From the IMG/VR virus record IMGVR_UViG_3300020469_003886, positions 28,103-92,102 of that record: a DNA stretch of 64,000 bases; one strand, 5' to 3'. The notes under the pieces were generated by a model that was given only the letters and a program-made list of their open reading frames with translations, was not told the DNA's origin and did no database searches. This DNA is from a virus. The position numbers were made by a program, and so were the translations under genes. Below, in pieces: positions 1,934-59,138 of this stretch. How positions within the stretch are numbered: position 1 is the stretch's first letter; each line of letters starts with the position of its first letter.

Positions 1934-2527
1934 TTAACTCCAGGGTTTTTTATCAAGATCAACTGTGATGCCCTGTGCTTTTAACCCTTTTATTACATTT
2001 TGTACACCAATTACCTGTCTAAATGTGTCATGTAGTGCATGGTGCTTGTCTGCTTGTGGCATTTGTGCTTGGATTCCAAAGCCAAACAGTGTTCTAGTAT
2101 CTCTTATGTCGTAATAACTCCATGGAACTCCAACTTCCATCTTACGCATAATATTGTCAACAATCATTAGATCAAAGCATGATCCGTGGCTCCAAGGACG
2201 TTTTACACCAAATGAAAACTTACGCAACTCTTTCATTGCGTCTTGTATTGTGATCCTATCACCGTTGTCACCAAATGCTTCATCCTGTGCTTCTTTTGAT
2301 TGTGTTGACCACCAATTGATTGTTTCTTCGTTGACTTTACATCCAAGTGCTGTACATGAATCCAAATCAATTCTTCTGTACATCACTTGATGTGGTGGAA
2401 GATCTGAAACTTTAATTTTGCTGTAATCTGCATGTGGATCAAATCTAATTGCGGCCATAGTAACAATTGCCGCATCGTTAGATGTAGCCAATGTTTCTAA
2501 ATCAATCATTAAATCTGTGTTTGCCAT
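1934..2527 (-). CDS. DEDD 3'-5' exonuclease (Rv2179c/DexA-like)
   Basis: Motifs DLMIDLETL, WSHGSCFD, RDTRT, HHALHD. Start moved to the ATG directly after the promoter. Confidence 0.85.
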   Translation of the reverse strand: MANTDLMIDLETLATSNDAAIVTMAAIRFDPHADYSKIKVSDLPPHQVMYRRIDLDSCTALGCKVNEETINWWSTQSKEAQDEAFGDNGDRITIQDAMKELRKFSFGVKRPWSHGSCFDLMIVDNIMRKMEVGVPWSYYDIRDTRTLFGFGIQAQMPQADKHHALHDTFRQVIGVQNVIKGLKAQGITVDLDKKPWS

Positions 2528-2533
2528 AGTATT

Positions 2534-2561
2534 AATATAGCACAATTTTCCAGAATGTCAA
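2534..2561 (-). promoter_or_regulatory. Sigma70-type promoter, leaderless geometry
   Basis: TTGACA-N16-(TGc)TATATT-N6-ATG. Confidence 0.75.
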
Positions 2562-2564
2562 GAG

Positions 2565-3200
2565 CTATTTTACGAAAGCACCAATTCTTCCATGCACGTC
2601 AGGATAATCAATATATCTATATCCTTTTGGAGGATCAATTGACTGTCCTTCCCAAACAGGAATAAATTCTACTATGTTTTGTTCAAAATCTGGATTTGGT
2701 CTAAAATGAACTTCTATAAGTTTACTACCTATAAATTCACAATTGATGTTCGGCTTATTTGCAAATTGTTCCAATACTTTTGGAAAAGGTATTTGATCAT
2801 CAGTTGCTACCCATTTATCCCATTTGGTAAATGTATCTTCGCTTTTGAATCCTTCAACACACAGCACTTGTTTGCCGTATTGATAATCAACTGACAAATG
2901 TTTTCCTTCGAACCATTCACACCAAAAATATCCAGGATCTAAATCTATTGTGTACTGTGACAGGTACATTTTTTTTGCACCTAATCCTAAGCCCATAACA
3001 TTAACACAAGGTCGTACAATATACCATGCTGGTTCAGGAACATCTATTCCTGCTGGACCACTTTTGTATCCTAACTTTCGAGAAAGTATTAATTTATCGT
3101 AGACCCAAATTTCGTCAGCATCTGCGGTCTTCCAGTAAATGTCTTCTGGTGTGTCTTCATAAATCTTCTTGTTCATCTTTTGTTTTGTATGACCATTCAT
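2565..3200 (-). CDS. Conserved phage hypothetical protein, possibly ATP-grasp-like (start probably 3176)
   Basis: YIVRPCVNVMGLGLGA, WCEWFEG.HLSVD and NCEFIG.KLIEVHFR resemble ATP-grasp segments. Confidence 0.55.
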   Translation of the reverse strand: MNGHTKQKMNKKIYEDTPEDIYWKTADADEIWVYDKLILSRKLGYKSGPAGIDVPEPAWYIVRPCVNVMGLGLGAKKMYLSQYTIDLDPGYFWCEWFEGKHLSVDYQYGKQVLCVEGFKSEDTFTKWDKWVATDDQIPFPKVLEQFANKPNINCEFIGSKLIEVHFRPNPDFEQNIVEFIPVWEGQSIDPPKGYRYIDYPDVHGRIGAFVK

Positions 3201-3807
3201 CTGTGTGACCTACTGACCATTTAGGTGTGTTTTCGACTGTGTAGTTCTGTGAACATACTTTAAAGTCTGGCATCTTTCTATCTGGGTGTACTAAACTTTG
3301 ATCTGTAAATATTACCCTGTTGTTTGGCTGTGCCGCAAACTGACCATTTTCCATTTTAATCATGTTGAATGATTTGTGTTCCGGATCATGCTCTGAAAAA
3401 TTTGTGTTCAACACATTTTGATCTCTGTGACAGTTGTCAATTGTAAAAATGTATTCGCCTTTATGCATTTTTTTATCTTTGCCAAAAAATTCACAATCGC
3501 ATAACAATGGTTTTTTGATCACTGTGATATCATAATCAAAACAATCCCATATCTGTAAATGATCCAATGGCAATTGATTGTCTTTGTCGTAGTCTGTTTT
3601 CCAGACGAATGCTGATAATGGCAACTTATCAAAAGAAGCACCATAGTCTGTTAGTAGTGTTTCAAAGTATAATGCTTTGCCCATTACACTTTTTACTGAT
3701 ACCCATATTCCTGGTGTAAGTTCTCCATGACCTTTTTGTAGATCATATAGATACTCTTTTTTAACGTATACTTCTTGAGGTGGAAGATTGTGGACTAGGA
3801 AGCTCAT
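3157..3807 (-). CDS. Conserved marine-phage hypothetical protein
   Basis: 216 aa ORF with GGAGG SD; GQFAAQPNNR motif. Confidence 0.7.
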   Translation of the reverse strand: MSFLVHNLPPQEVYVKKEYLYDLQKGHGELTPGIWVSVKSVMGKALYFETLLTDYGASFDKLPLSAFVWKTDYDKDNQLPLDHLQIWDCFDYDITVIKKPLLCDCEFFGKDKKMHKGEYIFTIDNCHRDQNVLNTNFSEHDPEHKSFNMIKMENGQFAAQPNNRVIFTDQSLVHPDRKMPDFKVCSQNYTVENTPKWSVGHTDEWSYKTKDEQEDL

Positions 3808-11154: not shown

Positions 11155-12126
11155 TTATCCTTCTAATTTACTTTTGACCTGAGGTCCTAGTAATTCATTT
11201 ATAAACATTGTGTATACTTCTGGTTTAAAATGAATCTTGTCTGAATGCATTTCATTAAATGCTTGTTTACTACCTGCTTTTTGTTTGGCCCAATCAAGAA
11301 ATGCCCAATCAATATCACCATTCAACCAATTTTCTTGTTTACCAACTATATTTTTATATGTGTCCTGATAAACATGATGATCTAAATATTGTTTACCACA
11401 ATGTGAAAACAACATAAATTTAACATTCAAAGACTTTAATGTATTGATAATATTCATAATATTTGCTAGATATAATGAAACGTCCATATCACTCAAATCC
11501 ATAAACACTGAATAGAAGTAGCAGTATATCAACATGTTTTTAAATTGTTCATCATTACTACCTAATGCTTTGTACAGTTCATTAAATTTCTTTTTTACAT
11601 TATCTCTTTCGTGATTACTGAGATTTGCATTTTTGTAAAAACTTTCAACTGTCCATGTTGTTTCACCTTTAAAAAAGTCTCGAACAGATGCTGTAGTATC
11701 AGCACCATGATAAAAATCAACACACTCTTGTTTTGAAATGCTTTTTCTATTGGGCCAAGCATACTGCTCTCCACGTTCCCAATCTTTAGTTAGTACACGT
11801 TGTCTTGAATATATTGGATGATAATTTTTTTGTTTGTTGATATATGTGCCTGTAATATGACTTGAAATTTCTACATCAACTTTGTCTGTGTCTGGCACTT
11901 CAATAACAAACATATCTGGTTTGTATTCATTATAAAAGTTTATAATCTTTGTTGGATAAAAGAACGAAGAAAAAGAACTTTCTCCTCCATTGTATACATA
12001 ATTTTCAATACCGTTTGTTTCTAAATGTTTTGACAGTTGTCCTGGCCAACCTTCATAAAATGTATAGTCGTTTGCTTCGGCTCCGCCGTAGGTATGACTA
12101 GTTCCTAAACATACAATTTTTTTCAT
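11155..12126 (-). CDS. SGNH/GDSL-hydrolase-like protein
   Basis: N-terminal CLGTSHTYG...WP and C-terminal DxxH (SDKIH); similar to 47872-48777. Confidence 0.55.
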   Translation of the reverse strand: MKKIVCLGTSHTYGGAEANDYTFYEGWPGQLSKHLETNGIENYVYNGGESSFSSFFYPTKIINFYNEYKPDMFVIEVPDTDKVDVEISSHITGTYINKQKNYHPIYSRQRVLTKDWERGEQYAWPNRKSISKQECVDFYHGADTTASVRDFFKGETTWTVESFYKNANLSNHERDNVKKKFNELYKALGSNDEQFKNMLIYCYFYSVFMDLSDMDVSLYLANIMNIINTLKSLNVKFMLFSHCGKQYLDHHVYQDTYKNIVGKQENWLNGDIDWAFLDWAKQKAGSKQAFNEMHSDKIHFKPEVYTMFINELLGPQVKSKLEG

Positions 12127-12157
12127 ACTTTTATACTACTACCTTTTGTTTTAAAAA

Positions 12158-12439
12158 TCAAGAATAATCATTCCACAATCTCCACTTTTCATCTTGTGGT
12201 ATCCATCCTTCAGGAATTGGAAAATCCCAATCTTTTTCTTCCATCTTGACCCAAATTTTTTCAAACATTTTTTCTAAACCACCTTCTAAAGGATTGTCTT
12301 CTCCTTCTTCTTTGGTCATTTTTTCAACACTGTCTAAAAATTCTTTTACACCTTCGTACACTTTTTCTCTGTTGTACTCTCGCAATCTTTGGTGGTCGTA
12401 GTATTCTTTATAATTATAGTATTCTTCTTTACTAATCAT
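12158..12439 (-). CDS. Hypothetical protein
   Basis: 93 aa ORF. Confidence 0.65.
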   Translation of the reverse strand: MISKEEYYNYKEYYDHQRLREYNREKVYEGVKEFLDSVEKMTKEEGEDNPLEGGLEKMFEKIWVKMEEKDWDFPIPEGWIPQDEKWRLWNDYS

Positions 12440-15617: not shown

Positions 15618-16309
15618 TATTTGTCTCCTATTCTTAGAACTTTAATTCTATTAACAATAGTTTCCTTACCACCATTGTATTTGTTAACTTGATGATCTTT
15701 AACGTATGCACTGATTTGCAAACTAGCACCTTCAACTATTCCATCATCTTCTGGATTGCTTGGTGTAAAATGTTTAAGTATGTTTTTGCCTTGCATAAAA
15801 CTTACAATGTATAAACCTTTGTGTGGTAAAGGCTTAACCATTTCAACTACAACATCAAATACATTTCTTTTCTTTACATCACCTGTAAACATACTGTTGG
15901 AAGCCATTTGTTCTTCTTTGACTTTTCTTGCTTCTTTGTCAAGTGTTGTTTTGTAAGTGTGTGGAAGTGAAGCAATAATACCAATGTCTTTTGCTTTCAC
16001 AGTATTTTGTGCAATACAACCTAATACTGCTTCTTGGAAATTGTTATTTGTTTCACCAAGTTTAAACAACAGTAGTCCTTGATAATGTTCAATTATTTCA
16101 TCTGCAAATGCTAGATCTTTTTTAGCATGTTTTGGATTTTCTTTTGCAAGTTCTTCAATAACCAATGTTTTGTTAGATTTTCTTTCATTATAATCTGCTT
16201 CTGTAGTTCTAACATAACCTGATTTACGGTATATTGCGTTAGCAACTGCAAGAGCAGTTTTTGTGTTATATACTATTTTTTCCATTTTCTGTGCCTTTCT
16301 GCTGTTCAT
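15617..16309 (-). CDS. Hypothetical protein, C-terminus possibly OB-fold-like
   Basis: ORF downstream of a sigma70 promoter; start ambiguous. Confidence 0.65.
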   Translation of the reverse strand: MNSRKAQKMEKIVYNTKTALAVANAIYRKSGYVRTTEADYNERKSNKTLVIEELAKENPKHAKKDLAFADEIIEHYQGLLLFKLGETNNNFQEAVLGCIAQNTVKAKDIGIIASLPHTYKTTLDKEARKVKEEQMASNSMFTGDVKKRNVFDVVVEMVKPLPHKGLYIVSFMQGKNILKHFTPSNPEDDGIVEGASLQISAYVKDHQVNKYNGGKETIVNRIKVLRIGDK

Positions 16310-16315
16310 ATTATT

Positions 16316-16385
16316 AATATAACACAAATTAGGATTCTGTCAACCAGAAAAATAGGTAAAAAAATGTAGTAAAATCAATGGTTTA
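16316..16385 (-). promoter_or_regulatory. Sigma70 promoter with upstream IHF-consensus site
   Basis: TTGACA-N16-TATATT; AATCAA-TGGT-TTA (WATCAANNNNTTR) at 16373-16385 on the plus strand, beside A-tracts. Confidence 0.6.
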
Positions 16386-16458: not shown

Positions 16459-17709
16459 CTATGCTGACATAGACTTTGTTAAGGATTGTAAAGTATTATG
16501 ATTTTTCATATATGGCGAAAAATACCCAATTTTTTTAGATAATTGTTCGTCATCGTATGGAATCTTTCGAGAAATCCAACCTACAATATTATCTGCATCT
16601 TCTGTTTCTGGATGATAATAATGTCGATGATCGCATATCTCATATCTAATATCTGTGTAATTGTCAATGCATTCAGCAAAAAATTTATTATATGCAAAAT
16701 CTTCTTTAATAGAATCTAACATATCTAAATTTATAATGAAACATTGTCTTACTAATTCTTTTTCACTGCCTGTTTTCCAACCAGCAATTGGTGTTGTCAT
16801 ATCTAAATTATTAACATAATCAATTATACTGTTGTCAGTCCAAACATACCCACCAAACGCAACCAGCACTTTTTTGAATCCTTTTTTCTTTAAACCTTTT
16901 AAAAATTTTAAATCTCCTTTAAAAGGCTGAGTTGTTACTGCAATATTTTCAAATCCATGATCTATCATATTAAGAATTGTCATTGTTGCCATCCAATCAG
17001 TTTGCTTTGGAAGTACATGCATATCTTTATTCCATACTGCATAACATACGTCATTATCAGAATTATAGTTGTAAACTGTTTTTGTTTCAGCATAATCTAA
17101 ATTTACAGTTAATCTAATTACTAAAGAATTACGTTCTACACCCAACGTTGGCTTATGCCAAGAATTATTATTCGATATCATAATGTATCCTTGATTTGGC
17201 AAGAATTTTTTTCTATACATTTCATTATCAGCATTATCAACAAACTGTGTTCCATATTGTTCTAGATTGTTGTCTTTAGGAAGATAAATTTGCAATGTTA
17301 TTGTTGATAAACTATTTTTTTGGTCTGTATGTGCTTTATCAATTTGATGCTCATATTCAGTATGAAAACTTATCCTTGATGATGTTAATTCAGCAACTTG
17401 ATCAATATTATCAAAATTAAATTTTTTAAGTATTTGTTTTTTAAAGTCATTTGTTTTTGTGTAGTTCCATAATTCTTTGTAAAAAGAATCTTTGTTTGCT
17501 ATTTCATCAAATATTATAATTGACGGTTCTGTTCCTTGGGGAGGAGCATCTGAATGTGTATACAATTTTTTAAAGTCTTCAATATCATGTGCAATCTTTT
17601 GATAATGCTCATTTGTAAAAAAATCACATATATCAAATGCTGTTACATGATGCTCGACTTCACTAATTGTGTCTGCTTCTTTTATTTTTTTATCAATATA
17701 ATCAAACAT
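16459..17709 (-). CDS. 2OG-Fe(II) oxygenase-like domain plus unknown C-terminal domain
   Basis: HTD...TLQIYLP...GT.F...SWH...R pattern. Confidence 0.6.
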   Translation of the reverse strand: MFDYIDKKIKEADTISEVEHHVTAFDICDFFTNEHYQKIAHDIEDFKKLYTHSDAPPQGTEPSIIIFDEIANKDSFYKELWNYTKTNDFKKQILKKFNFDNIDQVAELTSSRISFHTEYEHQIDKAHTDQKNSLSTITLQIYLPKDNNLEQYGTQFVDNADNEMYRKKFLPNQGYIMISNNNSWHKPTLGVERNSLVIRLTVNLDYAETKTVYNYNSDNDVCYAVWNKDMHVLPKQTDWMATMTILNMIDHGFENIAVTTQPFKGDLKFLKGLKKKGFKKVLVAFGGYVWTDNSIIDYVNNLDMTTPIAGWKTGSEKELVRQCFIINLDMLDSIKEDFAYNKFFAECIDNYTDIRYEICDHRHYYHPETEDADNIVGWISRKIPYDDEQLSKKIGYFSPYMKNHNTLQSLTKSMSA

Positions 17710-17724
17710 TTTAAATATTTATAC

Positions 17725-25848: not shown

Positions 25849-26506
25849 TTATCTTACTCAATGCCTCCATATTATTTTTGTTTGTTTCACCATATTCTCT
25901 ACCAGCAATGGCCCCTGCTATAGCATATTCGCCAAAGCCTCTTTCATTACCAACAGAGCACCATATATCTAATCTCTGCTCTGTTTCTGCATCTTTTTGT
26001 TTATCAATTACTTTTGATGCCAGTTTAGTGCATTCTCTAAATGCAGATTTAAATGTATTAAAAGGATCTGTGTTAAATGCTGTTGTGTTGCTTATAGTTG
26101 GCATGGCTTTAAATGCACCTTTTTTACCTTCTTTGTTTGCAACTGATGTTGTAAAATCAATTCTCCAATCTTTTGCATCACGCAAGGATTGTGTTGGAAA
26201 CAATTTAACACCACCATATCCATACACTAAATCGTTAATAGGATTTCTACATCTCCATACATGTACACAGTGTTCATCCCATTTATCTGGTTTAAATGAA
26301 AAATCAAACTGATCTTCTAATTCTGCATCAGCATCAACTACATAAAAACTTTTTGTATATGCCAATTCTGCACAACGTTTGTGTGCTTCAAAAATTCCTT
26401 TTACTCCTTGCACTCTGCGAGCATAAGGAAATCTACTTACAAGTTTTTCCCATGTTTGATCAGCATAAGGTTCTTGGTAACTTAAATGAAATATATCTAG
26501 TGCCAT
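25775..26506 (-). CDS. Glycosyltransferase-like (GT-A, DxD) protein
   Basis: GVKGIFEAH..C, FYVVDADA, YGYGGVKLF. Confidence 0.55.
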   Translation of the reverse strand: MALDIFHLSYQEPYADQTWEKLVSRFPYARRVQGVKGIFEAHKRCAELAYTKSFYVVDADAELEDQFDFSFKPDKWDEHCVHVWRCRNPINDLVYGYGGVKLFPTQSLRDAKDWRIDFTTSVANKEGKKGAFKAMPTISNTTAFNTDPFNTFKSAFRECTKLASKVIDKQKDAETEQRLDIWCSVGNERGFGEYAIAGAIAGREYGETNKNNMEALSKINDFGWLGQQFNKIQISSRDARVIR

Positions 26507-35344: not shown

Positions 35345-35701
35345 TTAACTCCTTCTTGATTTTTTCTTTGGAGAGATACCAAACTCAGCCGCTTCTGCTT
35401 CTTTTCTCAATTTATGAGCTCTTCTTACTGCACGTTTTTTATCTTCACGTTTTACAAAAGACGGTTTCATGTAATATCTTCTATCACGAAGCTCTTGCAT
35501 AACACCTTCTTTTAACAACATTTTTTTAAGTTTACGCATGGCTTTTTCAACGTTGTTATCAACAACTGCAACTGCCATTCCTGGTAACTTAGGTGGACGT
35601 GGTCTTTTTTCTTTATTGTCTCTACCGTCTTTTTTGTTATAGCCTATGTCAAAAGACTTAACATCATATTTTTGTCTAGGTTTTCCTGTTTTCATATTCA
35701 T
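35345..35701 (-). CDS. rpsU: Ribosomal protein bS21 with basic N- and C-terminal extensions
   Basis: V.V.DNNVEKAMRKLKK....EG...ELR.RRYY.KPS. Confidence 0.9.
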   Translation of the reverse strand: MNMKTGKPRQKYDVKSFDIGYNKKDGRDNKEKRPRPPKLPGMAVAVVDNNVEKAMRKLKKMLLKEGVMQELRDRRYYMKPSFVKREDKKRAVRRAHKLRKEAEAAEFGISPKKKSRRS

Positions 35702-35734
35702 AATACTCTTATATTAACATCTTTATAATATTTG

Positions 35735-36289
35735 TCAACTCTTTTTTGCATCTGCGTCTTTACAAATGACTGCTATAATTCTGTTTCCGGCTTGTTTTGG
35801 TGGTGAATCATATTTGGTTTGCTCTAATTTTTTAACCATCATATTAATTTGATCAATAAACATTTTGCCGTTAGGTATTTCCCTACCTCGCAACCTCATA
35901 ACTATTTTTACTTTATCGCCATCATCAATAAATTCTTGTGCTTTTTTAAGTTTCACATTTAAATCATGCACATCAATATTTGGCCTAAATTGTAATTCAC
36001 GCAATTCGACTCTGTTTTGTCTTTCAAGTTTTTTCTTCTGTTTGTCTTTTTTTTGTTTTTCGTAATTCCATTTACCAAAATCTTGTATTTTACACACAGG
36101 CGGATTTGCTTTTACAGTTGTACAAATTAAATCTAATCCAAATTCCTTGGCTTTAGAAAGTGCAGTTTTACTATCAACTATTCCTATAAATGCTCCATTA
36201 GGATCAATTAACCTAATTTTAGGAAAAGTAATTGCTGTGTTTAATAGCACACTTGGTTGAGAAAACTTATTGCGAAATGGTTTTTTCAC
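35735..36289 (-). CDS. infC: Translation initiation factor IF-3
   Basis: IRLID..G...G, GLDL, PPVCKI.DFGK..Y, RPNID.HD, GDKVK, RGRE; GTG start overlaps the clpX stop. Confidence 0.93.
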   Translation of the reverse strand: MKKPFRNKFSQPSVLLNTAITFPKIRLIDPNGAFIGIVDSKTALSKAKEFGLDLICTTVKANPPVCKIQDFGKWNYEKQKKDKQKKKLERQNRVELRELQFRPNIDVHDLNVKLKKAQEFIDDGDKVKIVMRLRGREIPNGKMFIDQINMMVKKLEQTKYDSPPKQAGNRIIAVICKDADAKKS

Positions 36290-37893: not shown

Positions 37894-39248
37894 TTTTTTT
37901 TCTTAACTTGATCGCCTGGTTTAACATTAATTGTTTCATCAATATTGATTACTGTTTTGTTTGGTTTTTCTTCTAAACTTTTTTGATAATCTAATTGCTC
38001 TTGAAGTTCTTCTTTTGTTTCTGAAAGTTTTTCACGAAACTCATTTAATTCTTTTTCATGTCTTTTTTTTAGATCTTTAACTTCATTCTGTTTTTGATCT
38101 GGACCACTATATTTTTTAACTAAATCAGGATCATACTGTTTTTCAAATCCTCTTCCAAAACGTCTAATAAGTGACATGTTGGCCGCAATTAAAAGCAAGA
38201 CAGCAAGTGGATCAAACACAACTATAATGATAATAATTACCCAACGCACTGCCGCTTCTAATAAGTTTTGATTTGCTTCTTGACCATATACAAATTCTGC
38301 AATGTATTTTAATGGACCAACTTCAACTTCCAACTGTGCTTGTTTACTCATCAACACAATTTTATCTTCGTTAACTTGATCAATTTTATCTTGTTCTGCT
38401 TCAATTTGGTCTTCTAGTGCAATAATTTTACCTTCTATATCACCTGTCTTTGTGTTTGCTTGACTTTTGTAATTATTAATAATTTTTTCAATACTTGTAA
38501 TTTGGTCTACATATTTGGCATCAACACCAGCAAGATCTTCTTTTAATTTATTTTGTATTTTAACTATAAGTTTTTGTGCCGCTGATGCTACTGATAGTTC
38601 ATTTGCTGTTGCTTTTGCTATTGCTTCATCTAAACCTTTTTTGCTAAATGCACCTTTAAAACGTTCTTGTGCCGCGGCTATGTCAGCCTCTTTACGTTCT
38701 TGTGCTTGTTTTAATCTGTTGTTTTGTAGTTCAATATCTTTGTCTGCTTGATCTCTTAATGCTTGTTTTTCAACATCGATACGTGCATACAGTTTGTCTA
38801 GCTCTACTTGTTCTTTGTCAATTAATATATCAACTCTAACATCTTCACCAGAGACAAGTCTTTCAATATCAGATGACCAACGATCTATTCTGTTTTCAGA
38901 ACGTAATAACTTTTCTTCAATGGTTGCTAATTTTTCTGTGCCAATTGTACCTAGTGATGTTTGCTCAACGTGTGCTTTTGATAAGAAACCAAATATACCC
39001 ATTGACGTAATAAACATCAATACCACAACTGCTATCGATAGATATGCTTTTATAAACTTTGGTGCTACTTTCCAGTTTTGGTACAACCATGAGGCTGTCA
39101 CAAGTTTTCCAACTTCTAATACAGATCCCATCACCATGATTGGTATGGCCGCACCTGCAAAGATAGCCGCCAAGCCTAGTATGGAGTAGTATATTGCAAC
39201 TGCCGAAATACTCAAAGCAGTCAATAATGTTAATATTGCCATAAACAT
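37887..39248 (-). CDS. Membrane-anchored coiled-coil protein (jumbo-phage conserved type)
   Basis: N-terminal TMs (LEVGKLV, TSMGIFGFLSKAH), long coiled coil, EVGPLKYIA, VFDPLAV TM. Confidence 0.8.
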   Translation of the reverse strand: MFMAILTLLTALSISAVAIYYSILGLAAIFAGAAIPIMVMGSVLEVGKLVTASWLYQNWKVAPKFIKAYLSIAVVVLMFITSMGIFGFLSKAHVEQTSLGTIGTEKLATIEEKLLRSENRIDRWSSDIERLVSGEDVRVDILIDKEQVELDKLYARIDVEKQALRDQADKDIELQNNRLKQAQERKEADIAAAQERFKGAFSKKGLDEAIAKATANELSVASAAQKLIVKIQNKLKEDLAGVDAKYVDQITSIEKIINNYKSQANTKTGDIEGKIIALEDQIEAEQDKIDQVNEDKIVLMSKQAQLEVEVGPLKYIAEFVYGQEANQNLLEAAVRWVIIIIIVVFDPLAVLLLIAANMSLIRRFGRGFEKQYDPDLVKKYSGPDQKQNEVKDLKKRHEKELNEFREKLSETKEELQEQLDYQKSLEEKPNKTVINIDETINVKPGDQVKKKKD

Positions 39249-39280
39249 AACAATATTATTTATGTAAAAAAACGGTGGTT

Positions 39281-40730: not shown

Positions 40731-41153
40731 CTACTCTTTTATAGATATACTCATAGAACGACACGATCCTTCTACCTGAGCCATTGCTTGTTCTATAGTA
40801 AAAGCATTCATGTCTTCCATTTTTTCTTCTGCAATTTTTTTAATTTGTTCTCTAGTAATATACTTAATTGTTCCTCGACCAGGTGTTTTACCACCTTTTT
40901 TAAGACCAACTGCTTTTAGTATAAAATAGGTAACGGGTGGTTTTTTAAGAACAAATGTAAAGCTCTTGTCTTTATAAACTGTGATTAGGCAGGGTATAGG
41001 TCCTTCTAGGGCTTTTGTCTTGTCATTAAAGCTCTTACAAAAGTCCATGATGTTAACACCACGTTGGCCAAGAGCTGGTCCAACTGGTGGGGCTGGTTTA
41101 GCCTGTCCTGCCTCTATGATTAACTTTAGAGTACCAGTTACTTCTTTCGCCAT
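40731..41153 (-). CDS. rplK: Ribosomal protein uL11
   Basis: PAPPVGPALGQRGVNIMDFCK.FN, ITVYKDKSF.F..K.PP, G..RSM. Confidence 0.95.
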   Translation of the reverse strand: MAKEVTGTLKLIIEAGQAKPAPPVGPALGQRGVNIMDFCKSFNDKTKALEGPIPCLITVYKDKSFTFVLKKPPVTYFILKAVGLKKGGKTPGRGTIKYITREQIKKIAEEKMEDMNAFTIEQAMAQVEGSCRSMSISIKE

Positions 41154-43211: not shown

Positions 43212-43703
43212 TTACAAATAATTTCTTACTTGGATTAATCTCAACAACATTTTTGTGTCCTCATTAATATATAATGTTTGTAGTTTTTCAGCATATCGAC
43301 ATTTGTCCATATACTCTTTGTACTCAATGTTTTTATCTTCTGTTGTGTGTAACCATTCTTCTTTAAACTGACTGTAGGTTGTATCCACATCTTTCCATGC
43401 ATCTGTACGTTGTGTTCTTAAATCAGCCCACCAGTTATATAGTATTTTAATTTCTTGTAATGCAGATTGATAATGAGGCTCTTTGGCTTTTTGTGAGTGT
43501 AGCCATTCAATACCTTGTAGACCTTTTTCTTTGTTTTTGTAAGATGTATCTTGTGTGCCTGTGTATATCTGTGCAATATAATATTCAACAAAATTTTGTA
43601 AATGAGTAAAACTGTCGTATAGTATTTGATCACCAGTAGAAATTGGTTCAGACTTATCCGGAACTGTGTGAAACCACTGGCGAAGAATATTTACTATTGA
43701 CAT
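43212..43703 (-). CDS. Hypothetical protein
   Basis: LYNWW...R, ML.RLI..R; leaderless promoter geometry. Confidence 0.65.
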   Translation of the reverse strand: MSIVNILRQWFHTVPDKSEPISTGDQILYDSFTHLQNFVEYYIAQIYTGTQDTSYKNKEKGLQGIEWLHSQKAKEPHYQSALQEIKILYNWWADLRTQRTDAWKDVDTTYSQFKEEWLHTTEDKNIEYKEYMDKCRYAEKLQTLYINEDTKMLLRLIQVRNYL

Positions 43704-43733
43704 AACTTATTGTAGCATAAAAACAGATTTAAA

Positions 43734-44594
43734 TCAATCGTCTTTTTTGACCAAAGTAAATTGTTCTGCTATATTGCCTTGGAATTGATAAGATCCATAA
43801 TGATCTAAATTTATAGAAGGATCCATCCAAATTTCTCCACCCATTTTTTGCCAACGTCTACAAAATGTATAATCTTCTGAAAGATAACGTCTTGTTTCTG
43901 GTTCAATCATTGTGTCAAACAATGCATAAAAATATGGATTCAATACTGGGTCTGTATTGAGATCATTGTTGTATCTTGTTTCAGGATATTCGTTAATCAT
44001 TTTATCAATAACTTCTCTCTTGATCATCATAAATCCTGTACCTGCATCTAACACAGGAATTAATCCTTGAACTAGCGGAATTTCTTGAGAATCAGTATGC
44101 TCACGTTTTATATTCAAAGCATACGATGCCTGAAACTTTGCAAGTTCAAATGGATCAGTTGGTTTTTGATTTGTTGCTACTCCATGCACTGCTGGCCAAT
44201 TAATTGATTTTTTAGGATATGCTCCAGTGACAATTTCTTTGTTTCTGTGCAATAACTTAATGATATCTTGAGGATCAAATCCAACATCAGCATCAATAAA
44301 CATTAAATGTGTAAACTGTGGATCTTTTAAAAACATTGCTGTAAGAGTATTACGAGCTCTTGTAACTAGACTTTCATTTGATAGTGTTGCTAGTGTAAAA
44401 TTTAGTCCATAGTGTTTAAAAAGAATTGCAAGACCTGTCATTGCTTTTAAAAATGGTTCACCAACCATACCACCGTAACACGGTGTTGCAACCATAACGT
44501 GAGCTTTTCTTAACTCCTCTATGTCAACGTCAATACGTGTATTCATGTTTTGACTCAGTGGTTGGTTTAATTTTGTTTTATCTTTTTTACTCAT
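43734..44594 (-). CDS. GT2-like glycosyltransferase
   Basis: ATPCYGG, ESLVTRARN, FIDAD, GTGFMMI, SEDY.FC. Confidence 0.75.
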   Translation of the reverse strand: MSKKDKTKLNQPLSQNMNTRIDVDIEELRKAHVMVATPCYGGMVGEPFLKAMTGLAILFKHYGLNFTLATLSNESLVTRARNTLTAMFLKDPQFTHLMFIDADVGFDPQDIIKLLHRNKEIVTGAYPKKSINWPAVHGVATNQKPTDPFELAKFQASYALNIKREHTDSQEIPLVQGLIPVLDAGTGFMMIKREVIDKMINEYPETRYNNDLNTDPVLNPYFYALFDTMIEPETRRYLSEDYTFCRRWQKMGGEIWMDPSINLDHYGSYQFQGNIAEQFTLVKKDD

Positions 44595-44597: not shown

Positions 44598-44963
44598 TTA
44601 ATCTCCTGTTCCAGGGTTTTCAGAAAGAAGATCTCTTTTGGATTTTTGGTCTGGCATTTTATCTGGACCATATTCTTCTGCTTCTGGTAACGCATCTTTC
44701 TTTTTTGTTATATTTGGCCATGTCTTACTGTACTCAGTATTTATGTGTATCCAATAGTCTAATTCACTTTTTGCAATATTTGGATCTGTATCTGCCACAA
44801 TTGCATCAACAGGACACTCTGGTTCGCATACACCACAGTCTATACATTCATCTGGATTGATTGCTAAAAAGTTTTCACCTTCGTAAAAACAATCAACTGG
44901 ACAAACTTCAACACAGTCTGTATGTTTACATTTTATACACTCATCTTTTACTATGTACGTCAT
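44598..44963 (-). CDS. fdxA: 7Fe ferredoxin (FdxA type)
   Basis: [38 protein letters not shown]; C-terminus PG.GD. Confidence 0.93.
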
Positions 44964-45002
44964 ACTGATATACTACTATAGATTATTAAAAAAGTCAAGG
45001 AT

Positions 45003-45632
45003 TTAACTAATAATTTGATCCCACTGTGGTCTTGGCTTGTCAGGATGTTTATGTTCATTTGATTCTGTTTCATTTGCAAAACCAAATCCTACCATTACTA
45101 CAGGTGAACCTTTTATGTCTAAATATTCTTTTAAACAATCATTGTCAAAACAACCACAAAAACCACTTTGTACTCCAAGTGACTCTGCTGTTATAATTGA
45201 ATTCCAGCAAGACAATCCAACATCTAAATAATCATTATCAATTGGATCACCATCGTCAAAATACCAAACAAATAGTAAAGGTGCAAGTGTTTGCCCATTT
45301 ATTTGTGTTCTCAATATTTTTTGGTCTCTCCAACTATGTGCTTCACTAACTGATCTTGGTGATCTTGAAACCATTAAATCAGTGTTGTCATCACTGTAGT
45401 GAACTTCTTTATCAGACACTGTACAAACATATTCATACAAACCTAATTTAGCACGTCTGTGTTCTAAACTTTGTCCTAGTATTTTAACTTTAAAGTTGTA
45501 TCTATTATTACAAGATGGTGTTTGTGCTACTGATTTTTTTATCAGCTCTGTAATATGTTCTGGTATAGGATTGCCGTCAAAATATTTAACTGTAGTTCTG
45601 TTTTCTAGTATTTTTTCTAATTGTTCTAACAT
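45003..45632 (-). CDS. Nitroreductase-family protein
   Basis: RTTVKYF, TPS..N, D.G....I.AESLGVQSGFCG.F. Confidence 0.75.
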   Translation of the reverse strand: MLEQLEKILENRTTVKYFDGNPIPEHITELIKKSVAQTPSCNNRYNFKVKILGQSLEHRRAKLGLYEYVCTVSDKEVHYSDDNTDLMVSRSPRSVSEAHSWRDQKILRTQINGQTLAPLLFVWYFDDGDPIDNDYLDVGLSCWNSIITAESLGVQSGFCGCFDNDCLKEYLDIKGSPVVMVGFGFANETESNEHKHPDKPRPQWDQIIS

Positions 45633-45677
45633 GCAAATATTTATGTATTAAGTGTTGCTATTATATACTTTTATATC

Positions 45678-46325: not shown

Positions 46326-46326
46326 G

Positions 46327-48788: not shown

Positions 48789-49889
48789 TTATAGTTCAAA
48801 GTTTTCAAATGTTTTGTCGTCAACGTCTTGTTTTAGTCCGCCAATTACATAACTTTCAACTTCTGTTTCTTGTGGAGCAACCTGTAGTCCAGCACTCGAT
48901 AACCAGTGTGCTGTCCATGGTAACGGATTTGCGTTAGCAGGTTGATCATAAATTGGATCATATCCAATTGCTTTTAATCTTTTGTTTGCAATCCACTCTA
49001 CATAATCGCCTAACAATTTTTCATTAAGTCCAATGATAGAACCATCTTTAAATAAATGTTTTGCCCATGCTTTTTCTTCTTCAACACAGTCTTTAAACAT
49101 TTTGATAACTGTTTTATCTAAACCTTTAATTGCTTTGATCATTTGTTTGTCATCACCTTTGTGCCAATTTTTAATGACCTGTGTAGACAAGTTTAAGTGT
49201 GTTGCTTCATCACGTGCAATGAGTGAAATGATTTTTGCTGAGCCTTCCATAAGTTTAAGCTCGCCAAATGCAAATGTACAAGCAAATGATACATAAAATC
49301 TTAAACCTTCTAAAATATTTACGTTAATCATTGCAAGATATAATTGTTTTTTAACATCAAGTATATCGCCTTCATTTTTAACAAAATAGTTTTCAGCCAT
49401 TTTAGAAAATGTATCATAATTTTCTGTAACTGATATTGCACGTTTTAAAATTTCTTCATCATTTAAAATTGTGTCAAATACTTCTGATGGATCTGAATAC
49501 ACATTTTTCATAATATGTGTATATGAACGTGAATGAATTGTTTCAAAAAAGTCCCAAGTAACAATACAGCCTTCTAGTTCAGGATTTGAAACATAAGGTA
49601 AAAAGGCCAAACTTGGACCTCTACCCTGTACTGAATCTAGCAGTGTTTGATACTTTAAGTTTGATGTAAAAATATGCTTTTGTTCTGGACGGAAGTTTTG
49701 AAAATCTGAACGATCTTTCTGTAATGAAACTTCTTCTGGTCTCCAAAAATACCCAAGCATAGTTTGGTTAAGTTTATCTAAAGCAGGATATTTAAATATG
49801 TCATATCTCTGCACACTCTGATCTTCTCCAAAGAACATTGGTTCTTTAGTAAAATCTACTTCATTTCTATTGAATACTGTTTTTGCCAT
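48789..49889 (-). CDS. nrdB: Ribonucleotide reductase class Ia beta subunit
   Basis: FWRPEE, LDSVQGR, ETIHSRSY, EGLRFYVSF, RDEATH, QVAPQETE..SY. Confidence 0.97.
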   Translation of the reverse strand: MAKTVFNRNEVDFTKEPMFFGEDQSVQRYDIFKYPALDKLNQTMLGYFWRPEEVSLQKDRSDFQNFRPEQKHIFTSNLKYQTLLDSVQGRGPSLAFLPYVSNPELEGCIVTWDFFETIHSRSYTHIMKNVYSDPSEVFDTILNDEEILKRAISVTENYDTFSKMAENYFVKNEGDILDVKKQLYLAMINVNILEGLRFYVSFACTFAFGELKLMEGSAKIISLIARDEATHLNLSTQVIKNWHKGDDKQMIKAIKGLDKTVIKMFKDCVEEEKAWAKHLFKDGSIIGLNEKLLGDYVEWIANKRLKAIGYDPIYDQPANANPLPWTAHWLSSAGLQVAPQETEVESYVIGGLKQDVDDKTFENFEL

Positions 49890-49895
49890 GTTTCT

Positions 49896-49923
49896 ATTAT
49901 ATACTCTTTTACTACCTTGTCAA
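49896..49923 (-). promoter_or_regulatory. Sigma70 promoter, leaderless geometry (nrdB)
   Basis: TTGACA-N16-TATAAT-N6-ATG. Confidence 0.8.
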
Positions 49924-56748: not shown

Positions 56749-57477
56749 TTATTCGGTATTTTTTTTGAACAGATCTGTGATTTTAGCCTTGCATTCAAGT
56801 GCTAGATCGCGATTTTTTTCAAACTCAAGCTGATTTTTTGCTTCTTTATTTTGTTCACCATGTTTTTTAGCATCAAAATACATTTTTTTGTAGTGAGATG
56901 CTGTATTTGAGTACTGTACATAGTCATTGTATATATTGTGTAACTCAATCATTTTATGATCAGTGTATAATATTTCATCATTTAAATAATTCACTAAACA
57001 AAACGCCATTTCGTAAACTTTTATATCTTTTGATACTGTTTCGTTTGTATCTAAATTAATCACATCATACAAGTATCTTTTTCTAAATGGACGCATCTTA
57101 ATCAGATAGTGACCTACTTTTACACCATGGTCTGTTCTTTCTGTAGTAAGTGCTTTTTTAAACTTTGGATTAGTTACAGCAACTTCTACTACTTCTTTTA
57201 ACACAGAATCATCTAATTTATTGAGATTATCAACTAGTGATTTTGCATTTTTTATAGTTTTTTCTTTGTTTTCAATAACTTCTTTTTTAGACACTTTATC
57301 AAGTTTTTTTTCTACTGCATTAAGAAACTCTGAGCTACCTTTAACTGGTTCTCCCCATTTATTCATTGTACACCAAAATCTATAGTGTTCTTTTAAACTC
57401 CTGGCTGTCATGCCATCAGTTAATTCGTCAACGTGTGCGGCGACTTCGTATCTTTGTTTTCTTTTCTGTCTAAACAT
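56749..57477 (-). CDS. Hypothetical protein
   Basis: 242 aa; TTGCAA-N17-TATAAT-N6-ATG. Confidence 0.65.
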   Translation of the reverse strand: MFRQKRKQRYEVAAHVDELTDGMTARSLKEHYRFWCTMNKWGEPVKGSSEFLNAVEKKLDKVSKKEVIENKEKTIKNAKSLVDNLNKLDDSVLKEVVEVAVTNPKFKKALTTERTDHGVKVGHYLIKMRPFRKRYLYDVINLDTNETVSKDIKVYEMAFCLVNYLNDEILYTDHKMIELHNIYNDYVQYSNTASHYKKMYFDAKKHGEQNKEAKNQLEFEKNRDLALECKAKITDLFKKNTE

Positions 57478-57492
57478 AAGTTTATTATACTA

Positions 57493-58014
57493 CTATTTTT
57501 TGTTTTTTGCAACTATATCTGCAAACTTTATTATTTTAGCAAATTCTGGATCATTTTGCAACTTCTTTATTGATCCTGATATTTCTTTATCAACATTTTT
57601 CATCATGTCTTGTGCTTGATCTTTTGATGCTTGTTTTGTGCCTTGTGTGCCTTGTGTGCCTTGTGTTGATTTAGGTTCTGTGCTTGTATTACCTTGTATG
57701 TTTCCTGCTGATGCTGTGTTTTTTGACACTGTTTTACTTTTGTATCCTTGTTTAAATGCGTCTGCGACTGAATATTCATCAAGTAATGTTTTTGTATCAT
57801 CATCTAATCGGTCAAAACCGGATTGTAATATTTGTTTTGCACTTTCTGGATCTTCTTCGTCAACTGCTTTGGCTAGATTCATATAATCTCTAAGACCTAA
57901 TGGTTCTGTCAATGATTTAACCACACTAGTTGGCATGTGTACTAAATTACTAACTTGGTTAGTAAATGCTTTTGGGTCGTCAATTGTGTTTAATATATCG
58001 TCTTTTAAGCTCAT
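57493..58014 (-). CDS. Hypothetical late protein
   Basis: TATAAATA-N5-ATG; contains (TQG)3. Confidence 0.65.
   Translation of the reverse strand: MSLKDDILNTIDDPKAFTNQVSNLVHMPTSVVKSLTEPLGLRDYMNLAKAVDEEDPESAKQILQSGFDRLDDDTKTLLDEYSVADAFKQGYKSKTVSKNTASAGNIQGNTSTEPKSTQGTQGTQGTKQASKDQAQDMMKNVDKEISGSIKKLQNDPEFAKIIKFADIVAKNKK
57636..57666. repeat. 9 bp coding tandem repeat, TGTGCCTTG x3
   Basis: Encodes TQG repeats. Confidence 0.8.
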
Positions 58015-58029
58015 ACTAATATTTATACT

Positions 58030-59097
58030 TTAAACGTACTTTGCACAATTAAACGCACAACTATAATGTGGATTTGTGTCAATTGATTCTTTTAAATTCG
58101 ATTTAAAAAATGGATTTTTTAATATATCCTCTAGACTTTTATGATATATGCTATTCCATTTTGGTCCATAGTACTGATCTAAATGGTGTAGATATTTTCC
58201 TGTAGATCTATATAATTTTGACCTATTTGGTCTAAGATAATAATCATGATAATGGTCTTGGAAATAACAACATGGCCACACTCTGCCATCAAAACCAATA
58301 AACAAAGATTGTTCTTTTAACCACCAACAGTCTATTACCTTTTCTTTTTTTGTATCAGTTACTTTTTCGTTGTTTAATAATTGTACTATTTGTTGTCTAA
58401 GTATAGGAGCATCTTTACTGTTATAATCTTTTATTTCTTCTACTTTTTTATGTACTTGTGTTTTTTGTTCAATTATTTTTTGAGTTGGCCAAGATTCGTC
58501 TGGAGTCCTATTATTTTGTTTTGTTACAAATTTTAAATTTAAATTATTTGCTTCTTGTTTTGCTTTTTCAAGTTCATGCTCATTGTGTGGAAATATAATG
58601 TACTTCCATTCTCCTCTACCACCGGCAGTTGTATATGCTTTCATATTTTCTAAAATTTTATCAAAGTTTGAATTTACTCTGTATAGGTGATTAGTTTCTC
58701 GATGTCCATCAACACTGAATTTTACTTTGATTCCATTTCTTCCGGTAGTAAAATGTTTCTTACTGAGCTTACCAAATTTTTTCCACCAAGCAGTTGATCT
58801 TAAACTGCCATTTGTATCTATTATCATCATTGCTCCTGCTTCTACACAATATTTTGCAATTTCAAAAAAATCTTTGTGCATCAGTGGGTCGCCAACTACT
58901 CCACAAAAAGATATTTTTTTATTTTTTATGATTGTAGGAGTAAATGTTTTAACAAATAATTCATAAGGCATAGAAGTTAATTCTAAACCTGAAGCAACTT
59001 TACCGCCATGTGTTCTTGTACAACCTGGACATAATAAATTACAGTGTGATGTTAATTCAATTTCAAATGCATTATAGCTCTTAATACCGTTCTTCAT
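58030..59097 (-). CDS. Radical SAM protein with C-terminal SPASM/twitch domain
   Basis: CNLLCPGC, CGVVGDP, DTNG, FSVDG, C..PCCY..CAFNC; paralog of 23679-24797. Confidence 0.9.
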   Translation of the reverse strand: MKNGIKSYNAFEIELTSHCNLLCPGCTRTHGGKVASGLELTSMPYELFVKTFTPTIIKNKKISFCGVVGDPLMHKDFFEIAKYCVEAGAMMIIDTNGSLRSTAWWKKFGKLSKKHFTTGRNGIKVKFSVDGHRETNHLYRVNSNFDKILENMKAYTTAGGRGEWKYIIFPHNEHELEKAKQEANNLNLKFVTKQNNRTPDESWPTQKIIEQKTQVHKKVEEIKDYNSKDAPILRQQIVQLLNNEKVTDTKKEKVIDCWWLKEQSLFIGFDGRVWPCCYFQDHYHDYYLRPNRSKLYRSTGKYLHHLDQYYGPKWNSIYHKSLEDILKNPFFKSNLKESIDTNPHYSCAFNCAKYV

Positions 59098-59138
59098 AAC
59101 AGTATTTATTTTGGTGTGTATAATAATTATAAATTATT

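Follow-up and report, generated by a model that had tools for sequence, protein, structure and literature searches.

The 64,000-nucleotide stretch of viral DNA analyzed here (the window) raises the question of what it means for a phage when promoters end a few nucleotides ahead of a start codon. The window is part of a jumbo marine T4-like myovirus akin to pelagimyophages. It lies on a 92 kb contig, which is a fragment of a genome of roughly 330–380 kb, and the GC content of the phage is 34%. The initial annotation described 14 promoter-ATG juxtapositions, called the leaderless architecture pervasive, and proposed that viral IF3, bS21, and uL11 variants retune ribosomes toward such transcripts. 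All 14 were found in the sequence as described, on the minus strand. The pattern proved real and nonrandom, but “pervasive” was too strong: ~18–20 of the 126 contig genes (roughly 15%, about 1 in 7) have a leaderless-type start, and the majority are intra-operonic and SD-led.

Promoters abutting start codons

Sigma70-type promoters abut ATGs across the window (all coordinates refer to the minus strand). A perfect TTGACA-N16-TATAAT-N6-ATG precedes nrdB (49889; 49887..49923), and TTGACA-N16-TATATT-N6-ATG abuts, without an SD, the start of the exonuclease gene (2527; 2525..2561). The latter arrangement recurs before a 230-aa gene (16309; 16307..16343) that was absent from the initial list, as were further leaderless candidates at contig positions 17375, 2558, 22601, and 7724, which precede the window. 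The lead gene of a long operon follows TTGATT-N17-TATAAT-N6-ATG (26506; 26504..26541), a 242-aa gene TTGCAA-N17-TATAAT-N6-ATG (57477; 57475..57512), a ferredoxin gene TTGACT-N17-TAGTAT-N6-ATG (44963; 44961..44998), an Nfu/NifU gene TTGACA-N16-TATAAT-N7-ATG (30020; 30018..30055), and a 163-aa gene TTGATT-N17-TACAAT-N5-ATG (43703; 43701..43737). The phage bS21 gene is near-leaderless, at TTGACA-N16-TAATAT-N9-ATG (35701; 35699..35738). The least secure site of the set is TTGATT-N17-TAGTAT-N6-ATG, a weaker sigma70-like site ahead of a 323-aa gene (12126; 12124..12161), whose layout was not retained in the comparison with the relative G004. Weak, non-conserved hexamers occur among the listed sites at 12126 and in the −10 of 44963.

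T4-late-type boxes take up similar positions. These are TATAAATA-N5-ATG before a 173-aa gene (58014; 58012..58027), CATAAATA-N5-ATG before a nitroreductase-family gene with tRNA-Ser upstream (45632; 45630..45645), AATAAATA-N5-ATG before a Radical SAM/SPASM gene (59097; 59095..59110), and TATAAATA-N6-ATG directly 3′ of tRNA-Glu (17709; 17707..17723). At the 453-aa gene 39248, CATAAATA-N8-ATG (39246..39264) is near-leaderless, a spacing that, like the N9 of rpsU, was found as first stated. Two perfect promoter-N6/7-ATG sites were rejected as leaderless genes: 48047 opens a 4-aa ORF within a gene, and the ORF that starts at 39812 is 31 aa long and lies in the leader of gene 39733. Geometry by itself is therefore not proof.

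A contig-wide count of −10-to-ATG distances, as initially suggested, gave a sharp peak at N6: TTGAC-N17-19-TAnnnT-N6-ATG occurred at 8 sites against a background of 0.81 per position (Poisson P = 2e-6). ATAAATA-N5-ATG occurred at 7 sites in the 92 kb, with a background of 0.84 (P = 3e-5). Strict sigma70 distances were bimodal, at 6 (seven sites), 7, and 9, with none from 10 to 17 and the rest at 18 and above; of the 23 strict sigma70 sites on the contig with a gene start no farther than 150 nt away, 9 have leaderless-type spacing. Strict late distances were 5, 5, 5, 5, and 6, followed by 13 and then 21–24. Loose sigma70 sites on the sense strand at N5–7 numbered 18, vs 5.4 ± 2.3 (maximum 13) in 200 dinucleotide shuffles. 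Moreover, of 23 [T/A]ATAAATA sites, 18 had a gene start no more than 100 nt downstream; ~3 would be expected by an estimate for a 95% coding genome. The predicted leaderless architecture is thus real and nonrandom, and it is also conserved.

The layout recurs at the orthologous genes of a complete relative (328 kb) and of other IMG/VR contigs; across relatives, hexamers and spacing are fixed and spacers diverge. At nrdB, TTGACA-N16-TATAAT-N6 is invariant in 10 close relatives and G004, with varying spacer sequence. G004 also retains the layouts at 26506 (orthologue 86% identical), 57477, 58014, 59097, and 44963, the last retained in L006 and L007 as well, and the G410 orthologue of 16309 has an identical layout. 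The ATG-abutting promoter of 43703 persists in L006 and L007 (N5 too) and in G004, there with other hexamers and spacing. N5 is also found at 45632 in L006. A late-N5 gene family of similar size, which may be related to 45632, is common to G004 and Mosig. Spacing at 39248 and bS21 ranges from N5 to N9 among relatives (39248: N5 in L005, L006, and G004, N8 in L007; bS21: N6 in G004, N8–9 in L005–L007 and G410). In G004, by contrast, the 17709 orthologue is leadered, with an SD-like motif. The layout is labile per gene: nrdB in relatives of 80–84% identity is leadered or promoter-less. Still, 16 gene families carry it in two or more genomes, including the G004-Mosig and HTVC008M-Mosig pairs.

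The ATGs also behave as true starts. Within the clade that shares the layout, 54 of 61 late-N5 ATGs begin an ORF that is 50 aa or longer, vs 0 of 3 in T4, P-SSM7, and 121Q. Pfam or PHROG domains of candidate genes begin at residues 2–13 (PHROG exonuclease from residue 2 at 2527, Fer4 domains from residue 3 at 44963, Nfu_N from residue 5 at 30020), and orthologues aligned from residue 1. The start codon is ATG in all leaderless candidates, and an SD spanning at least 4 nt precedes only 3 of 24 candidates vs 57 of 102 other genes. At most sites the gap to the preceding gene is 15–47 nt. Intrinsic terminators ahead of these promoters do not exceed the shuffle expectation. Read-through polycistronic RNAs probably carry these genes as well, as internal cistrons without an SD.

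A putative second mode of initiation

We consider it probable, though well short of certain, that a subset of genes is leaderless from two promoter classes, and that this is a heritable trait of a bS21-encoding marine clade, independent of IF3 and uL11. Host-sigma70-type promoters, presumed early, would set the −10 hexamer 6 nt (range 5–7) ahead of the ATG, and in T4-type late promoters, which a gp55-like sigma would recognize, the box (TATAAATA) would lie 5 nt (occasionally 6) ahead. The T4 late TATA box occupies the −10 position and precedes the TSS by about one helical turn (PMC2988020). Both geometries would put the A of the ATG at the expected +1. Since the gene begins exactly where the promoter should start transcription, the mRNAs probably lack a leader; from such a predicted TSS, the transcript would open with AUG, without an SD, and could be recruited via this 5′-terminal AUG by a 70S or IF2/fMet-tRNA route. 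Ordinary AGGAG-type SD sites serve the rest of the genes, so leaderless initiation would be a second, parallel mode for promoter-proximal genes. The clade with the trait would comprise the jumbo relatives, pelagimyophages HTVC008M and Mosig, and, with a weaker signal, OM43 phage Melnitz, with IF3 and uL11 carried by the jumbo subclade only.

Distribution across phage genomes

The late-type N5 peak was found in the complete genomes of HTVC008M (9 vs 0.94) and Mosig (8 vs 1.4), both of which encode bS21 and in neither of which IF3 or uL11 was found; these two proteins are therefore dispensable for the late class. Melnitz has bS21 and a weak late-type signal (4 vs 1.0). The leaderless signal was absent in T4, cyanophage P-SSM7, and E. 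coli jumbo phage 121Q, and peaks were also absent in the similarly AT-rich G038. Because 121Q encodes IF3 yet shows no peak, IF3 is not sufficient. The significant sigma70 N6 peak was confined to the jumbo subclade with IF3 and uL11 (G000, G004, and G410; a further member, G409, is an incomplete genome), where IF3, bS21, and uL11 occur together and are conserved. This association is one phylogenetic split, with no independent replication. Homologues of gp55 were found in G004, G410, HTVC008M, Mosig, and Melnitz.

The correlation with infC and rpsU that had been put forward for checking thus came out split: the late-type signal did not follow infC, while rpsU was present in 7 of 7 clade genomes tested (six with a clear signal, Melnitz with a weak one) and in 0 of 3 outgroups (T4, P-SSM7, and 121Q). 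However, the positive genomes form a single lineage, which reduces the correlation to one evolutionary event. The predicted layout characterizes one marine clade that carries bS21, and its link to bS21 is inseparable from shared ancestry.

IF3, bS21, and uL11

As initially annotated, the phage encodes all three proteins, each above curated Pfam cut-offs and on the minus strand. The IF3 gene (infC, 35735..36289) is full length, with a GGAG SD and a GTG start, and lies directly 3′ of a 419-aa gene. It adjoins the bS21 gene (rpsU, 35345..35701), whose product has a conserved basic N-terminal extension of ~40 aa. The uL11 gene (rplK, 40731..41153) has a strong GGAGG SD; uL11 functions in the GTPase centre and in RelA activation, and we know of no role for it in start-site selection. 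At the six positions examined, the phage IF3 retains E. coli residues Y75, R99, D106, R129, R131, and R133, which we take to be fidelity or 30S-binding positions. It looks canonical rather than relaxed.

In E. coli, loss of bS21 favors leaderless mRNA and 30S-bound IF3 discriminates against it, so that 30S-bound IF3 and the presence of bS21 both disfavor such messages (PMC10491246, PMC8138138). By contrast, leaderless initiation is reportedly promoted by IF3 when it sits on the 50S subunit of a 70S ribosome (PMC8138138, citing Goyal 2017 and Yamamoto 2016). The literature leaves the direction of any IF3 or bS21 effect unfixed. Any influence of the phage bS21 or IF3 on leaderless starts is one that we infer.

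Alternative explanations

Joint retuning of host ribosomes toward leaderless phage mRNAs by phage IF3, bS21, and uL11 variants seems unlikely to us. The three genes are co-conserved in the jumbo subclade, to which the significant sigma70 N6 peak is restricted, yet the late-type peak also occurs in HTVC008M and Mosig, which lack both IF3 and uL11, and 121Q has IF3 without a peak. The presence of bS21 in every clade genome and in no outgroup is likewise suggestive, as are the basic extension of the jumbo form and the near-leaderless, early-type promoter of its gene; against this stand the weak signal of bS21-positive Melnitz and the single lineage of the positives. Promotion of leaderless initiation by 50S-bound IF3 would fit, whereas the E. 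coli effects of bS21 and 30S-bound IF3, the six retained IF3 residues (with their presumed fidelity role), and the known roles of uL11 do not. Moreover, with 57 of its 126 genes dependent on an SD, the phage would itself suffer if initiation turned wholesale away from SD-led starts. The opposite polarity, in which IF3 and bS21 reinforce SD-led, AUG-faithful initiation and thereby restrain translation of leaderless mRNAs, whether from phage or host, to set timing or hierarchy, agrees with the canonical roles of both proteins, the conserved IF3 residues, and the SD-led IF3 and uL11 genes. We nevertheless regard it as very unlikely: leaderless starts lie behind early-type and late-type promoters alike, so a simple early-to-late switch-off is unfit.

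It is also quite unlikely that genome compaction explains the layout, with real promoters squeezed into gaps of 15–50 nt, no dedicated leaderless pathway, and protein made chiefly from read-through polycistrons or from a TSS a few nucleotides upstream, independently of an SD. The short gaps, the chance-level terminators, and the lability of the layout at a given gene speak for compaction, and in G038, a putative host-type genome, just 19% of ORFs have SD-like motifs, so such hosts may routinely initiate without an SD. However, compaction accounts for neither the exact N6 or N5 peak and the empty 10–17 nt zone, nor the strict spacing in diverged orthologues, nor the ATG-only starts, and the equally compact T4 and P-SSM7 lack a peak. 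That the layout arose by chance from AT-rich sequence ahead of start codons is barely credible. Low GC would invite it, and overall totals are not above shuffle expectation (87 vs 88 for loose sigma70-like sites, 36 vs 37 for ATAAATA), but the position-specific peaks in five genomes have P values between about 1e-5 and 1e-12, −35 elements match at 16–17 bp, orthologues conserve the layout, and similarly AT-rich T4, P-SSM7, 121Q, and G038 have no peaks.

Relation to known systems

The favored reading, a leaderless gene subset behind two promoter classes, resembles the leaderless mRNAs of lambda cI (pRM), mycobacteria, and actinophages, in which the −10 lies ~6–7 nt before the ATG, an SD is lacking, and the start is strictly AUG. 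Because the −10 abuts an ATG, with no SD and AUG only, a 5′-terminal AUG would be the expected ribosome signal. Unlike those systems, the predicted leaderless starts here involve two promoter classes including a T4-type late TATA box, and sit beside an SD-led majority. No report of a T4-type late class yielding leaderless mRNAs was found in the literature searched.

The nearest cultured relatives, HTVC008M, Mosig, and Melnitz (Kyanoviridae; ~70% nucleotide identity at nrdAB), share bS21, gp55, and the ATAAATA-N5-ATG peak. They differ in genome size (~141–147 kb vs ~330 kb here), in lacking IF3 and uL11, in a sigma70 N6 peak that is not significant, and in a bS21 without the N-terminal extension. 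Expression in E. coli has shown that HTVC008M bS21 enters ribosomes (Mizuno et al. 2019, PMC6375957). The Pfam Ribosomal_S21 core is shared with the phage-encoded bS21 of that paper and of Chen et al. 2022 (PMC9723584), and the jumbo-clade form adds its extension; the parts covered of the two papers do not mention a link between bS21 and leaderless mRNA.

Other jumbo phages (121Q-like Asteriusvirus, Atu_ph07, and Phosso) likewise have genomes of >300 kb and a full-length, two-domain IF3, which is at most 44% identical to the one here (31% in 121Q). The 121Q genome lacks the leaderless promoter geometry. Here, IF3 adjoins bS21. T4 late transcription (gp55/gp33/gp45) uses the same 8-bp TATAAATA box at −10 (PMC2988020), with AT-rich sequence downstream, and its gp55 has homologues in this clade. 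However, the T4 box shows no N5 peak (2 sites vs 2.2 background, neither opening an ORF), and T4 late genes are leadered and SD-led.

Source phage and relatives

The 92,102 bp IMG/VR contig holding the window (G000; the window covers its bases 28103–92102) was rated 24% complete by CheckV; the window itself has a GC content of 34%, with nearly all genes on the minus strand. Over nrdA and nrdB, it shares ~70% nucleotide identity with HTVC008M and Mosig, which infect Pelagibacter, and 67% identity with T4-like cyanophages. The window's IF3 gene matched four near relatives in IMG/VR, among them G004, a complete genome of 328,149 bp with terminal repeats. A second large relative, G410, spans 242 kb and is rated 55% complete. 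Given the nrdA and nrdB identities and these large relatives, we conclude that the window is part of a jumbo T4-like marine myovirus.

Promoters abut start codons

The initial annotation described promoters lying a few nucleotides upstream of ATG codons, and every site it listed was found in the sequence as described. Judged by hexamers and spacing (TTGACA-/TATAAT-like, 16–18 bp apart), the window has predicted sigma70-type promoters with 0–2 mismatches in 12 at the genes starting at 2527 (exonuclease), 16309, 26506, 30020 (Nfu), 35701 (bS21), 49889 (nrdB), and 57477, and weaker sites with 3–4 mismatches at 12126, 43703, and 44963 (ferredoxin). The late-type TATAAATA box is also present in the window, concentrated upstream of gene starts. 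Homologues of gp55 were found in G004, G410, the pelagimyophages HTVC008M and Mosig, and the OM43 phage Melnitz, and none was found in the 92 kb fragment holding the window.

Independently of gene calls, we tested against chance how far the −10 hexamer lies from the ATG that follows it. On the sense strand, this distance peaked sharply at six intervening nucleotides (N6) for sigma70-like sites. The pattern TTGAC-N17–19-TAnnnT had 8 sites at N6 vs. 0.81 per position (P = 2e-6), and ATAAATA had 7 sites at N5 vs. 0.84 (P = 3e-5). A contig-wide count of −10-to-ATG distances for sigma70-like sites gave 18 at N5–7 vs. 5.4 ± 2.3 (maximum 13) in 200 dinucleotide shuffles. Generic promoter counts were not above shuffle expectation, and the signal is carried only by position and by the top-quality sites.

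Distances to the next gene start were bimodal. Strict promoters (at most 2 mismatches in 12) lay 6 nt (seven times), 7 nt, or 9 nt away, never 10–17 nt, and then 18–141 nt, while late boxes lay at 5, 5, 5, 5, and 6 nt, followed by 13 and 21–24 nt. A start thus sits either right at the predicted +1 or at a distance that leaves space for a Shine-Dalgarno (SD) sequence. The promoter geometry corresponds to textbook +1 placement. In T4, the late box is described as lying at −10, roughly a helical turn upstream of the start, and the geometry here matches that description (PMC2988020). We infer the putative leaderless mRNAs only from promoter geometry, namely a −10 hexamer at N6 or a late box at N5. 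A search for terminators upstream of the leaderless promoters yielded 11 vs. 7.0 ± 2.6 in shuffles, with none in the relevant gaps. With no terminators isolating these units, read-through transcripts probably carry the leaderless genes too.

Promoter-adjacent ATGs as translational starts

Several features show that the promoter-adjacent ATGs are true translational starts. All 24 candidates begin with ATG, and non-AUG starts are poor without a leader. An SD of at least 4 nt precedes only 3 of the 24, compared to 57 of 102 other genes; a spacing of N5–7 is physically too short to hold one. The Nfu, ferredoxin, nitroreductase, radical SAM, and exonuclease proteins have conserved domains starting at residues 2–13, and alignments of orthologues run from residue 1, their ATGs lying at the same position. 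Across the clade, the ATG at N5 from a late box opened an ORF of at least 50 aa in 54 of 61 cases, vs. 0 of 3 outside it. Our initial gene calls had begun two of these genes at an in-frame TTG inside the promoter and one at an out-of-frame ATG further upstream. This matters for annotation, as leaderless starts may be misplaced by gene callers that look for an SD.

The architecture had been called pervasive. This holds for promoter-proximal genes but not for all genes, as ~18–20 of 126 (roughly 15%) are affected. Of the 23 strict sigma70 sites no more than 150 nt from a gene start, 9 have the leaderless layout.

Conservation in relatives

Orthologues in G004 share 41–86% protein identity with those in the window. 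G004 retains the promoter-ATG geometry at 57477, nrdB, 44963, 43703, 26506, 58014, and 59097, and at two further genes that lie upstream of the window. At 39248 and bS21 the geometry is likewise retained, with small shifts in spacing from N5 to N9. In total, 16 gene families have the layout in at least two genomes, including G004-Mosig and HTVC008M-Mosig pairs. The layout is real, statistically strong, and evolutionarily conserved, reaching cultured pelagimyophages.

A finer view came from nrdB, which we compared across 80 IMG/VR loci (L146–L225). The ten closest (85–96% identity) have exactly TTGACA-N16-TATAAT-N6-ATG, with variation in the spacer and discriminator, while more distant loci among the 80 have a 10–16 nt leader or no promoter. 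The leaderless state at nrdB is therefore under selection but labile, and promoter architecture at this single gene turns over quickly. Relatives of at least 80% identity show at least three states of the nrdB 5′ region: a leaderless sigma70 promoter, a promoter plus a 10–16 nt leader ending in tAGGT, or an upstream gene abutting directly.

Distribution across phage genomes

We compared observed counts with the background per position for late boxes at N5 and sigma70-type sites at N6 in ten genomes. Three of these encode IF3, bS21, and uL11: G000 (late, 7 vs. 0.84; sigma70, 8 vs. 0.8), G004 (14 vs. 2.35; 12 vs. 3.3), and G410 (13 vs. 0.81; 7 vs. 1.5). The first 140 kb of G409, a 172 kb fragment of an incomplete genome from the same clade, gave 6 vs. 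0.48 and 10 vs. 1.0; it encodes bS21, and we found no IF3 in the 172 kb and no uL11 in the 140 kb. Late-type enrichment extended to phages with bS21 only, HTVC008M (9 vs. 0.94) and Mosig (8 vs. 1.4), and more weakly to Melnitz (4 vs. 1.0), which has bS21 and no IF3. Their sigma70 counts were not significant (4 vs. 1.6, 4 vs. 1.9, and 3 vs. 1.9, respectively). The outgroup phages had no sigma70 peak: P-SSM7 (late, 0) and T4 (2 vs. 2.2) have neither bS21 nor IF3, and the E. coli jumbo phage 121Q (1 vs. 2.5) has IF3 only.

The leaderless layout of the late type thus characterizes the marine clade that carries bS21, and it requires neither IF3 nor uL11. Sigma70-type enrichment coincides with the IF3/uL11-bearing jumbo subclade, which represents a single phylogenetic split. 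As 121Q illustrates, IF3 by itself shows no association with the layout. The initial annotation had suggested checking whether the layout tracks carriage of infC and rpsU. The bS21 association is complete, yet comes from one lineage, while 121Q, HTVC008M, and Mosig speak against IF3.

HTVC008M and Mosig also have a TA[TAC]A[AT]T hexamer directly abutting the ATG (distance 0) in 6–7% of ORFs of at least 100 aa, far more commonly than at neighbouring offsets; the effect is weaker in P-SSM7 (3.9%). Overlapping stop and start codons, or some other signal, may account for this hexamer.

The phage IF3, bS21, and uL11

The three translation proteins named in the initial annotation, IF3 (35735–36289), bS21 (35345–35701), and uL11 (40731–41153), are indeed encoded, and all score above Pfam curated cut-offs. 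The IF3 (PF00707, 76.5 bits) looks canonical from its sequence. Residues 16–176 align to E. coli IF3 (8jsg_A, E = 1.5e-30), and Y75, R99, D106, R129, R131, and R133, which we take to be fidelity or 30S-binding positions, are kept, with R112 replaced by K and R116 by E. Its gene starts with GTG, 4 nt after a GGAG SD (36287–36300). This GTG is kept in G000, G004, and the relatives' loci L005–L007, with ATG in G410, and it recalls bacterial infC, whose non-AUG (AUU) start underlies IF3 autoregulation.

The bS21 (PF01165, 53.3 bits) has its own early-type promoter at N6–N9 from the ATG. It carries a basic, non-canonical N-terminal extension of ~40 aa (window 35578–35701; consensus MK.S.KPR.KYD.K.F ... 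RKPRPPKLPG) that is conserved in G000, G004, G410, and L005–L007 and missing from HTVC008M, Mosig, and G409. G410 has Leu in place of the Met at which bS21 canonically starts; since this internal Met is not conserved, the extension is translated. The bS21 of HTVC008M is reported to enter E. coli ribosomes (PMC6375957). The uL11 (PF00298, C-terminal domain model, 76.6 bits) has 140 aa, a strong GGAGG SD, and ~55% identity to diverse bacterial uL11 over its whole length.

Do phage proteins favour leaderless transcripts?

The initial annotation proposed that phage IF3, bS21, and uL11 retune ribosomes toward leaderless viral transcripts. Such retuning is possible, but canonical IF3 and bS21 roles do not favour it. 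When bound to the 30S subunit, IF3 discriminates against leaderless mRNA (PMC8138138). Other observations point the opposite way for IF3: bound to the 50S subunit on 70S ribosomes, it reportedly promotes leaderless initiation (PMC8138138, citing Goyal 2017 and Yamamoto 2016). For bS21, ribosomes lacking it together with uS2 translate the leaderless lambda cI mRNA better (PMC10491246). Because the literature is ambivalent, the direction in which extra IF3 or bS21 would act cannot be deduced from it. With counter-examples for IF3 and uL11 and a phylogenetically confounded link for bS21, a reprogramming system built on all three would be speculative.

A more specific scenario, which we consider unlikely as a whole, is that an ancestral gain of bS21 went hand in hand with the leaderless shift, with bS21 (and IF3) remodelling ribosomes into a private channel. 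The ancestor of the marine T4-like clade would have acquired bS21 together with a shift to leaderless initiation, and phage bS21 would remodel the platform, along with the anti-SD region of the mRNA exit site. In the jumbo branch, bS21 would have gained its basic N-terminal extension, IF3 and uL11 would have been added, and IF3 acting on 70S ribosomes would aid this remodelling. Ribosomes altered in this way might accept transcripts with a 5′-terminal AUG from host-sigma and gp55 promoters alike. If true, bS21-remodelled ribosomes would constitute a private initiation channel for the phage.

Host sequences bear on whether the layout simply mirrors the host. As a host-type control, we used the first 400 kb of G038, a 1.41 Mb, 33% GC, rhodopsin-encoding alphaproteobacterium. 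This stretch had no N6 or N5 peak, and among ORFs of at least 100 aa just 19% were preceded by an SD-like tetramer. This streamlined genome seems to use largely SD-independent but leadered initiation, which hints that the phage layout is not a simple mirror of the host; the evidence is weak because the relevance of G038 as a host is itself only inferred. The phage's own genes gave no host signal: the best cellular matches to uL11 were ~55% identical and scattered over many phyla, and the bS21 core was 36–57% identical to its counterparts in 384 alphaproteobacterial genomes, none of which stood out as nearest.

Leaderless mRNAs as such are well known. In the literature, we found no description of T4-like phages in which they are systematic and conserved, none of their production from T4-type late promoters, and no paper tying them to T4-like phages, pelagiphages, or phage bS21. 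What we found on leaderless mRNAs in connection with cyanophages, pelagiphages, Pelagibacter, T4-like phages, or bS21 was only GeneMarkS-2 citations or E. coli work. The layout, whose link to bS21 is correlative, offers a concrete, falsifiable handle on the role of phage-encoded bS21. Because the trait is present in cultured HTVC008M and Mosig, it is directly testable on Pelagibacter ubique HTCC1062, whose phages and cells form a virus-host system among the most abundant in the ocean. Exact matches to the window occurred in four metatranscriptomic runs, as assembled contigs that cannot show 5′ ends, strand, or level.

Rejected candidates and other features

Two promoter-ATG pairs were rejected as leaderless genes. 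The perfect TTGACA-N17-TATAAT promoter at 48055–48083 lies in the 3′ part of a 301-aa gene (47872–48777), and the ATG at N7 (48047) opens an ORF of only 4 codons inside that gene; this promoter probably drives the SD-led gene at 47869 via a ~180 nt leader. The TTGACA-N17-TATTAT-N6-ATG arrangement at 39733–39847 opens a 31-aa ORF at 39812, which lies within the leader of the SD-led gene at 39733 and overlaps it. At the gathering threshold, Rfam identified five tRNAs only, and no riboswitch was found at 39739–39790.

Next to uL11, ~670 nt (40057–40730) separate it from the nearest gene of any size; apart from one 56-aa ORF, this stretch has just several promoter-like sites (40586, 40619) and no Rfam match, and it may be a non-coding RNA or regulatory region. 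Finally, two late-type leaderless genes lie directly 3′ of tRNAs, at 17709–17799 (tRNA-Glu) and 45632–45767 (tRNA-Ser), and the TATAAATA box of each starts ~2–30 nt from the tRNA 3′ end.
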